The notes under the pieces: model-generated | Database searches by the model: none | The model's input: only the letters and a program-made list of their open reading frames with translations | What the model was told of the DNA's origin: nothing | IMG/VR virus record: IMGVR_UViG_3300020202_000088 | Span: 1 to 54,754 of that record | Reading direction: 5' to 3' (one strand) | Source: a virus | Lineage: Duplodnaviria > Caudoviricetes | DNA: 54,754 nucleotides | Position numbers and translations under genes: made by a program | Shown: positions 29,080 to 30,468 of the stretch, piece after piece | Numbering within the stretch: position 1 is the first letter of the stretch | Layout of the letters: each line of letters opens with the position of its first letter

Positions 29080-30468
29080 TTAAAGGAGGCGGCTGAGCTG
29101 CCCATTACCGGCGCGCGTCGGGCTGATGCCGGCCTTAGGTGCTGACTGAGAAGCAAAAATGTTCTGGTTGTAGTTGTACCCGCTCAGCTGCCCAGTGCCG
29201 CCGCCGGTGCCAGCGAACGTGCTGCCAGTCGTGGCGCCAGTGCCTGCGTCAGGGGCGGCAGAACCGCCCGCCTTGCGGCCCATTGCGGCTCCTAGACCGC
29301 CGCCGTAGCCACCAATGAAGCTGCCGATGCCGCCCGCCAGAGCATTTTCGAACAGGCTACTCTGTTGGGTCTGCTGCTGTTGACTGAAGGCTTCATTGGC
29401 TTGCTGCTGAGCTAGCTGCTGCTGCTGTTGGTCCGCGCCGATAACGGACATTTGCTGACTGTGGGCCTGATTCTGGGCCCCAAGCTGGCGGTTGAACTGA
29501 TTTGCGATGGCATTTTCCCCCAGCTCACCTAGGCCGCGCATATGCGACTGCGTCTGCCCGAGCAGCTGGCTGTTCAGATTCGCTCGCTGCGTGAGCATGT
29601 CACGCGCGGTGTTCACTCTGTCCGCCACAATCTTTCGCTGAGCGTTCGCAAGCTGCTCGAACTTGTTGCCCTGGAGGCCCGAGAACGCCTGCACCGCAGC
29701 ACCGGACGGGGCCTCTGCCAGGCCGCGGTCTGCGAGGGCCTGTGCAAGGGACGCCTCTTGGGAGCCGAACATTCGAGCGAGGTCATCCTTCGCTTGGCCG
29801 TAGGCTTCGAAGTCCTGGTTGTTCAGACTCCAGTAGTCGCCCTTGCCCGATAAGGCCTCACGGTCAGCATCGGCATTGGCGTAGTACTTCGATTCCTGGT
29901 CAGCGGCGCGGTTGTAGCTCTCGACGCCCTTGTTGAAGAAAGGGTCTTCTGACTGCAGCTTCTCAACCGCGTAACGGGTCGCAGTGGTGGGGTCGACGGC
30001 CATGAGAGTTTCAATTTCATGGGCCCGATCGTCATAGGTGTTGCCTTGCGCGCCATCCATGATCCGCTGGTGTTCAGCGAGAATGTCGGCGGCCGACTTG
30101 CCCTCGTTCTTCCAGGTGTTGATCAGACCCTCGCCGAACTTGTCGCGCAGGAGGCTTCCGTCCTTCAGGCGCGTGTTGTCGAACAGCGCGTTGCCCCTGA
30201 GGTTCGTATCGCCCTGAATCTGGCCGAAGATGTCCGCGACGCTCTTTCCCCAGTCATAAGACTTCTGGTCCTTAACGTAGCGTTCGCCTTTGAGGGAAGC
30301 GAGTGCATCAGCCAGGCTGGTTTTCCCGCTGCTGTAAGCGGACAAGGCATTCTGGACAGCCGGACTGCCGCCCAAGGCTTGCTGGAGCTTGGCGGCCTTG
30401 AGAGCGTCGCTCTCTGAAATCATGTTTTGGGCCGATTGGCCCTCTTTCTTGCCAAAGATGAAATCCAC
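29080..30468 (-). CDS. Satellite homologue of the helper ejection/pilot-type protein
   Basis: Collinear and roughly 80% identical by eye to 50763..52061 over ~400 aa, with a different C-terminal tail. Confidence 0.8.
   Translation of the reverse strand: MDFIFGKKEGQSAQNMISESDALKAAKLQQALGGSPAVQNALSAYSSGKTSLADALASLKGERYVKDQKSYDWGKSVADIFGQIQGDTNLRGNALFDNTRLKDGSLLRDKFGEGLINTWKNEGKSAADILAEHQRIMDGAQGNTYDDRAHEIETLMAVDPTTATRYAVEKLQSEDPFFNKGVESYNRAADQESKYYANADADREALSGKGDYWSLNNQDFEAYGQAKDDLARMFGSQEASLAQALADRGLAEAPSGAAVQAFSGLQGNKFEQLANAQRKIVADRVNTARDMLTQRANLNSQLLGQTQSHMRGLGELGENAIANQFNRQLGAQNQAHSQQMSVIGADQQQQQLAQQQANEAFSQQQQTQQSSLFENALAGGIGSFIGGYGGGLGAAMGRKAGGSAAPDAGTGATTGSTFAGTGGGTGQLSGYNYNQNIFASQSAPKAGISPTRAGNGQLSRLL

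Follow-up and report, generated by a model that had tools for sequence, protein, structure and literature searches.

Two copies of a late-module protein

We analyzed the whole of IMG/VR virus record IMGVR_UViG_3300020202_000088 (Duplodnaviria; Caudoviricetes), a single contig of 54,754 nucleotides (nt) hereafter called the window. Since 126 identical bases overlap at its ends (1-128 and 54629-54754), the contig represents a circle of 54,628 bp. This circle is composed of a podovirus-like soil phage of ~43.7 kb and a 10.9-kb segment, hereafter the element. Subtracting one repeat unit (10,912 bp) from 54,628 bp leaves 43,716 bp, which matches the sizes of related phages. Both parts carry a version of the same late gene, an open reading frame (ORF) encoding a protein that we call H432 in the phage and S462 in the element:

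29080-30468, minus strand: S462, an intact ORF for the 462-amino-acid (aa) element-borne copy of the phage late-module protein
50763-52061, minus strand: H432, the 432-aa phage copy and positional orthologue of the single-copy gene of the relatives

A first-pass annotation of the window had described these ORFs as collinear, and BLASTP confirmed this, aligning residues 1-403 of both proteins without a gap (345/403 identities or 86%, 93% positives, E = 0). Its by-eye estimate of roughly 80% identity has to be adjusted to 86% for the proteins and 77.8% for the DNA (29266-30467 versus 50859-52060, across 1206 nt). The many synonymous changes that it had noticed were borne out: third codon positions hold 194 of the 276 nucleotide differences, and the path between the two copies has a dN of 0.109, a dS of 1.70 (near saturation), and a dN/dS of 0.064 (NG86) or 0.079 (LWL85). 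Homology begins at codon 1 and is limited to the coding region. S462 starts with GTG, 6 nt downstream of an AAGGAA ribosome-binding site, and H432 with ATG after GGAG. After a shared MG the proteins end in tails of 59 residues (S462) and 29 residues (H432), which are unrelated, as had been proposed, because BLASTP gave no second significant segment. The tails were likewise unrelated in all three frames, which ruled out a frameshift as the origin of the difference, and tblastn with the tails alone returned low-complexity matches only. Among real genes in the window, the search for paralogues (E ≤ 1e-3) found just two pairs, S462/H432 and a pair of lipoprotein-like genes described below; the remaining pairs were shadow ORFs over those two and the overlap at the contig ends.

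In a phylogeny of the family, S462 and H432 were sisters (support 100/99) with terminal branches of 0.12 versus 0.097, and the next relative of the pair was only 48-49% identical. A relative-rate test against the nearest outgroup counted 16 unique changes in S462 and 14 in H432 (p = 0.86), and the counts were balanced with five more outgroups (6/6). Moreover, S462 retains 15 of the 15 columns that are invariant in the family. A dS of ~1.7 rules out a recent internal duplication, and S462 is therefore a copy from another lineage of the phage group. The substitution pattern points to a protein-coding history, with strong purifying selection over the path that connects the copies. The earlier suggestion that an intact ORF reflects selection stands in part: the ORF is intact and dN/dS is low along that path, but the low ratio may have been inherited from a phage ancestor before capture and need not reflect selection inside the element. 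Collectively, our results establish S462 as an intact, diverged copy of a syntenically fixed, single-copy late gene, located inside the element.

The element and its junction with the phage

Next, we delimited the element by self-comparison of the window, which revealed a direct repeat (24768-25111 versus 35680-36023, 95%). The repeat covers two copies of a lipoprotein-like gene, and the following features lie within these bounds, in addition to S462:

24768-25103, plus strand: lipoprotein-like gene, left copy, 111 aa (exact 221-nt core at 24882-25102)
25084-26364, plus strand: 426-aa orphan, no family, where the element is low in GC
26584-27792, minus strand: tyrosine integrase (phrog_1, 1.4e-55; PF00589, 2.6e-19)
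27796-28212, minus strand: HTH_17/excisionase-like (Xis-like) DNA-binding protein (HTH_17, 1.5e-9)
28353-29021, minus strand: 222-aa orphan downstream of S462, no family
30499-31478, minus strand: two orphan ORFs of 117 aa and 169 aa, which precede S462 in its leftward string of genes
31478-32776, minus strand: 432-aa orphan, candidate replication protein (Rep-like), on a structure-atlas lead only
33468-33505, plus strand: 38-nt non-coding motif, element copy, in an element gap
33831-34046, minus strand: small ribbon-helix-helix-like ORF, all matches under curated cut-offs
34097-34753, plus strand: small serine recombinase of the invertase/resolvase type (phrog_125, 4.6e-47)
35680-36015, plus strand: lipoprotein-like gene, right copy (exact core at 35794-36014)

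The two lipoprotein-like proteins are identical at 109 of 111 residues. The last 221 nt of their genes are identical, and the first 115 nt have diverged, mostly silently (dS ~0.7). S462 belongs to a same-strand gene string of the element; a 1.3-kb gap separates the Rep-like orphan from the ribbon-helix-helix-like ORF, and a further orphan lies beyond the serine recombinase. The Rep-like orphan had no Pfam, PHROG, or NCBIfam match, and a protein database returned only the protein itself; the structure atlas led to AEP-primase, RepB-primase, or BT4734-like clusters (score 0.90, TM 0.22-0.41). Scans with PHROG, Pfam, and other libraries gave no match to a capsid, portal, terminase, or tail family between 24768 and 36015, PADLOC gave zero defence-system matches in the element, and we saw no convincing inverted repeats at 24-37 kb that would mark an invertible segment for the serine recombinase. 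By eye, the 222-aa orphan (28353-29021, minus strand) contains a D...E-x-K-like stretch that might be nuclease-like, an impression that no library backs.

Five complete relatives of the phage (42.8-45.4 kb, CheckV 98-100%) were available for comparison. None of 11 queries taken from the element matched any of them, with a positive control on the window, and in one relative (G002) the genes that flank the segment lie ~400 nt apart. The element is thus a discrete, integrase-bearing unit that is foreign to the phage clade. The term "satellite", used in the first-pass annotation, is plausible on several counts, namely the element's own integrase and Xis-like helix-turn-helix protein, the lack of virion and packaging genes noted above, and its absence from the relatives; it is less apt in that no chromosomal home was found and the join to the phage is possibly a product of assembly.

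Besides the lipoprotein-like gene with its exact 221-nt core, two observations connect the element to the phage. The 38-nt motif has a second copy, in the same orientation and with unrelated flanks (34/38 identical, E 8e-7), in the gap where the late and early genes of the phage diverge:

16605-16642, plus strand: 38-nt motif, phage copy

The motif was absent from 28 loci of relatives, and we regard it as a candidate cis-site (packaging, origin, or promoter). In addition, the ratio of backbone (43,716 bp) to unit (10,912 bp) is 4.006, four units amounting to 43,648 bp. Both the motif and the ratio would be compatible with induction or packaging of the element by a helper. A contrast is provided by TGTAWTACA palindromes, which occur 13 times as exact copies (0.03 expected by shuffling) at 13871-22397 and 38351-45984, some of them within genes; none of the 13 lies inside the element, which taken alone has a chance probability of ~0.05.

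Is the join between phage and element real? The element was present in two soil runs from two studies (0.99 and 0.91 of sampled words), the first of which may be the source of the contig. The contigs of both runs end at the 221-nt core, and none bridges it. In run 1 the core formed its own 221-nt piece at a depth of 38.1, with the backbone at 20.8 and 19.8 and the element at 24.1, 19.7, and 17.7; in run 2 the depths were 5.2-6.7 for the backbone and 4.7-5.8 for the element. Across 20 kb, the contigs of run 2 and the window differ at 1 place, so that a single metagenomic genotype underlies all the evidence. Another assembly, deposited in ENA, includes a 10,973-nt contig with S462, the integrase, and the 426-aa ORF. 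This length is accounted for by 10,691 unique bases and 141 further bases on either end, so that the assembler here, too, stopped within the repeat. The contigs of both runs also end loosely on either side of a 45-nt segment (26521-26566) that lies after the 426-aa ORF and before the integrase gene, which suggests a short sequence common to other DNA in the samples.

These data could be explained if the phage (43.7 kb) and a 10.9-kb circle were separate replicons that share the 221-nt core and were merged by the assembler in a figure-eight walk. The exact core is longer than the 126-nt overlap that closed the contig, it is unbridged, its depth of 38.1 is close to the sum of 20.8 and 17.7, and the other assembly also broke there. 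By contrast, the two lipoprotein-like genes have diverged 5' parts and came out of assembly as separate copies, and near-equal depth in two studies would be unexpected for free replicons, although this is only a weak hint because such per-contig depths are not copy numbers. The size of a joined molecule, discussed below, leans the other way. Weighing these points, we consider a merger by the assembler rather unlikely, and a true phage-element cointegrate probable. An artificial join would change the residence of the element but not the nature of S462. In both cases S462 is an element gene, given its linkage to the integrase and Rep-like genes in the JGI contig as well as in the 10,973-nt contig.

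The protein family and the phage backbone

The late module of the phage is a single long minus-strand run (16087 to 1, then 54754 to 48755), on which a plus-strand replication module (PD-(D/E)XK nuclease, DNA polymerase I, helicase, and exonuclease) converges. Its genes, in order, are as follows:

Start of the module, minus strand: methyltransferase, weak integrase-like gene, large terminase, portal, and major capsid protein
14072-15184, minus strand: the integrase-like gene just named, a 370-aa ORF beside the large terminase gene (phrog_1, 1.3e-6, weak)
Next, minus strand: SU10-type adaptor (PF24175, 9e-18)
Next, minus strand: 802-aa SO2946-like_C protein, then the large ORF across the contig join
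1422 to 1, on to 54027, minus strand: the large tail-gene ORF across the contig join (C-terminal part with a weak "amidase" PHROG match, 1.9e-7)
52061-53688, minus strand: fibre-like protein and GNAT acetyltransferase, directly upstream of H432
48755-50760, minus strand: two family-less late proteins of Ala/Gly-rich composition, 298 aa and 369 aa, directly after H432, at the end of the module

H432 is therefore the first of the last three late-module genes, all three of which are without a family and Ala/Gly-rich. The GNAT acetyltransferase gene (52061-52510, minus strand) abuts the start of H432, and such a gene also immediately precedes the family gene in some relatives (L001, L002, L005, L029, and L033).

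We then surveyed the family of H432. A word-indexed protein search returned 36 relatives, none of them named, and an exhaustive profile search gave 333 clusters at E ≤ 0.001, 297 of them at E ≤ 1e-30, again all unnamed; the family is thus sharply bounded. In the IMG/VR loci the family gene lay among phage genes in 13 of 13 cases, and in 12 of them just after a large tail protein, a small protein, a fibre, and sometimes a GNAT gene. A further 27 metagenome loci, at least five of which duplicate viral loci, had phage flanks in 18 cases and were too short to tell in eight. The remaining one (L054; 11.8 kb, with a weak 68-residue match) is bacterial, containing a bacterial-type polymerase and ABC-transporter genes, and was set aside as a chance match. 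In all five complete relatives the gene was present at exactly one place per genome. A scan of 185,579 species genomes for the family found nothing, a weak negative given that a single peptide pattern served as the query.

Neither S462 nor H432 had a Pfam, PHROG, NCBIfam, or PADLOC match. When Pfam and PHROGs were searched with 23 family members, only one of them, P0008, matched anything. A profile search of the PDB gave nothing below E 0.1, and Foldseek with the AlphaFold model of H432 (pLDDT 64) found 0 matches at E ≤ 0.001 in the PDB and BFVD. In this model H432 is all-helical, with a single helix across residues 257-370 and a disordered Gly-rich end. Hydrophobicity peaks in the Gly-rich segment ALAGGIGSFIGGYGGGLGA at a KD19 of only 1.0; the protein has no strong membrane helix or signal peptide by this measure, and in that respect does not resemble a SieA-like integral membrane protein. 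A structure atlas provided a lead only, to clusters with P22_gp7 in 17% of their members. The C-terminal end of P0008 is formed by a Peptidase_S74 intramolecular-chaperone domain (1.8e-14), and over ~250 residues this protein matches two PHROG names, "virion structural protein" and "DNA ejection protein". The S74 domain, typical of trimeric fibres, hints that the family might form a fibre- or needle-like assembly. A trimeric tail needle or fibre of the P22 gp26 type would have a long coiled coil and a variable C-terminal tip; the observations that bear on this are the predicted helix at 257-370, tails that differ across the family, and the S74 domain in 1 of 23 members. A complex prediction of H432 residues 1-405 with S462 scored 0.08 (mark 0.32) without controls and carries no weight either way.

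The first-pass annotation had called H432 an ejection or pilot-type protein. Its position, in the late module after the tail genes, agrees with this call, but searches of Pfam, PHROG, NCBIfam, the PDB (by sequence and by fold), and BFVD gave nothing in its support. The family as a whole sits beside tail genes in late modules, and no membership by sequence or profile in the P22 gp7/20/16 or T7 gp14-16 families was found. "Ejection protein" is accordingly a name that we infer from position, all-helical fold, and Gly-rich C-terminal end, because no library names the family. By position, fold type, and composition, the H432 family is a late-module family, probably of the virion and related to DNA entry; within that, a fibre or needle role is as conceivable as an ejection role.

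The phage itself has no close cultured relative: by tblastn against 50,697 phage records, its capsid protein was <27% identical to anything, H432 and the large tail protein had no match, and the adaptor matched one uncultured record. The largest relative that we found is 45.6 kb. The 370-aa integrase-like ORF beside the terminase gene had no Pfam or PDB match, and a 43%-identical homologue was present in one of the five complete relatives (G003); the phage backbone may thus possess a recombinase of its own. Weak glycosyltransferase-like PHROG matches were noted for two ORFs (8814-9668, minus strand, and 22416-23399, plus strand), both of which are kept in 5/5 complete relatives, and one of which sits between the portal and scaffold-like genes.

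Possible roles of the element-borne copy

We tentatively favor a reading in which the element is a satellite-like hitcher with a captured copy of an entry protein that acts in phage-built particles. The H432 family would encode a virion protein that functions in DNA entry, whether as an internal or ejected protein or as a needle-like part. The element would exploit the phage while replicating by its own Rep-like protein, and the phage would package it as a multimer, four units equaling one phage genome. S462, captured from a related phage, would be made when the element is active and would co-assemble into the particles via the conserved body of 400 residues. Its swapped C-terminal tail would then alter entry, to the benefit of the element or at a cost to the phage in the form of spoiled helper particles. 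The first-pass annotation had likewise suggested that S462 might be loaded into particles, and had named an altered host range and poisoning of helper virions as possible effects. That the element is satellite-like is plausible; the virion role, tetramer packaging, timing of expression, and co-assembly are steps that we infer. An extended version appears unlikely to us, namely that the satellite resides as a cointegrate in the helper genome in the manner of a provirophage and leaves as a head-filling tetramer with its own DNA-entry allele, thereby specifying its own entry device or spoiling helper particles.

Several observations weigh against the hitcher proposal. The near-equal depths in the two studies are a weak hint of one joined molecule and not a free parasite. 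No terminase small subunit (TerS), capsid-size, or defence gene was found in the element. There is no known chromosomal site for it and no bacterial flank was seen, the only contexts found being the phage contig and the 10,973-nt contig that ends in the shared repeat; the species-genome scan that bears on this point used the H432 family only. At other loci, element genes were beside a family member in 0 of 40 cases (13 viral and 27 metagenome loci, partly the same contigs). As to the protein, no named family and no solved or predicted structure in the libraries above matched H432 or S462, so that virion membership is putative; the Gly-rich segment is only mildly hydrophobic; and the PHROG matches of P0008 may come from its S74 part, which would point to a fibre or needle and not to an internal protein. 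Lastly, the low dN/dS and the symmetric rates could date from before capture.

Three other explanations are to be weighed. The segment might belong to the phage itself as an accessory or lysogeny island, with S462 as a second virion-protein allele that yields two particle types or serves as a spare copy. Assembly did give one circular contig, the depths of element and backbone are similar (17.7-24.1 versus 19.8-20.8 and 4.7-5.8 versus 5.2-6.7; weak evidence, as said), and the phage region at 24.4-36.1 kb varies among relatives. However, at 54.6 kb the molecule is ~20% above the largest relative (45.6 kb), and with a capsid protein 64-70% identical it should therefore not fit the head. The element also has its own integrase, recombinase, and Rep-like gene and none of the 13 backbone palindromes, and the dS indicates a copy from another lineage and not a recent internal duplication. 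We judge such an island to be improbable. Slightly more doubtful still is that S462 is passenger DNA, a fragment of a related phage, one gene in size, that recombined in recently and is functionless, so that its intactness would merely reflect youth. The dN/dS path cannot be divided into parts before and after capture, there is one sequence type (with run 2 differing at the single place mentioned), and homology is limited to the coding region. Yet that homology runs from codon 1, S462 has a new start codon and a ribosome-binding site of its own, and in place of a truncation there is a new tail of 59 residues, in frame; a complete gene with these additions argues against a mere passenger, and chance capture boundaries that preserve one are unlikely.

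On similarly long odds, S462 could serve exclusion in the resident state, acting in a carrier cell as a decoy or dominant-negative protein at the envelope that blocks entry of related phages; it might be expressed from the element or from the element-carrying phage, possibly together with the shared lipoprotein. S462 shares its leftward gene string with the integrase, Xis-like, and Rep-like genes and stands outside the late module, and both genes shared with the phage are plausibly related to envelope or entry (a lipobox by reading in one, a Gly-rich end in the other). Against exclusion stand the lack of a strong membrane helix or signal peptide (maximum KD19 1.0) and of any PADLOC match, and we know of no exclusion protein that is a near-full-length copy of a virion protein. 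In phage P22, the consulted sections of one study indicate that injection blocking works through ejection proteins (PMC10883804), which speaks for a mechanism of this type.

What would be new if the hitcher proposal is true? Satellites with phage-derived virion genes and packaging as multimers are both known. An entry-protein copy on a satellite and residence in the helper genome would be new, neither having been found in the papers searched; a literature search gave no relevant pairing of phage satellites with ejection or internal virion proteins, supplementary material being outside its coverage. Known satellites act on the size of the capsid, on packaging specificity, or on late transcription, or they make capsids of their own. 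With an entry-protein copy on a satellite, delivery would join the steps that a hitcher can change, which may be a new way in which a virus parasite interferes with the particle of its virus. Mobile elements would also be exchanging alleles of virion proteins among related phages. Provided that the join is real, residence of an integrative element within a phage genome is in itself unusual. The S462/H432 pair is, moreover, a possible first functional handle on an unnamed family of 333 clusters in an uncultured clade of ~44-kb phages.

Among established systems, P4 (helper P2) is an ~11-kb element that bears an integrase and a primase and exploits the late functions of its helper. P4 redirects capsid size through Sid and, to our knowledge, carries no homologue of a P2 virion protein; a PHROG scan found no Sid-, Psu-, or Delta-like match in our element. 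Provirophages and transpovirons are parasites of giant viruses that reside in the genome of the helper virus. They differ in being eukaryotic giant-virus systems with no sequence relation to this element, and here the physical join itself may be a product of assembly. The P22 (gp7/gp20/gp16) and T7 (gp14-16) ejection or core proteins are encoded after the tail genes, and the phage studied here likewise has three family-less late proteins after its tail genes, the likeness in being all-helical applying to H432 only. There was no sequence, profile, or fold match to these proteins, and the sole link is the atlas lead with 17% P22_gp7. In P22, escape from injection blocking (SieA) maps to C-terminal regions of the ejection proteins, which matter for passage across the inner membrane, according to the consulted sections of the same study (PMC10883804).

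Cf-PICIs, as described in part of a recent preprint, encode their own versions of virion proteins (10.1101/2025.02.11.637232). They make whole capsids and borrow only tails, whereas in our element a single late gene is of phage origin and genes for a capsid, portal, or terminase are lacking. The closest parallels are with PICMIs of Vibrio and marine VEIMEs. In the consulted sections of the reports, PICMI multimers match the helper genome (8 x 6.1 kb versus 47.9 kb; PMC10803314) and VEIMEs are satellites packaged as concatemers of helper-genome length (PMC9618062). Like our element, both are small, bear an integrase, and have no capsid-remodelling genes; their multimers fit the helper length (PMC10803314; PMC9618062), as would a putative tetramer of our element (43,648 versus 43,716 bp). 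By contrast, PICMIs and VEIMEs are located in bacterial chromosomes and those sections report no capsid structural genes for them, whereas the element described here is known only in its join to a phage and includes its own version of one late gene of that phage.

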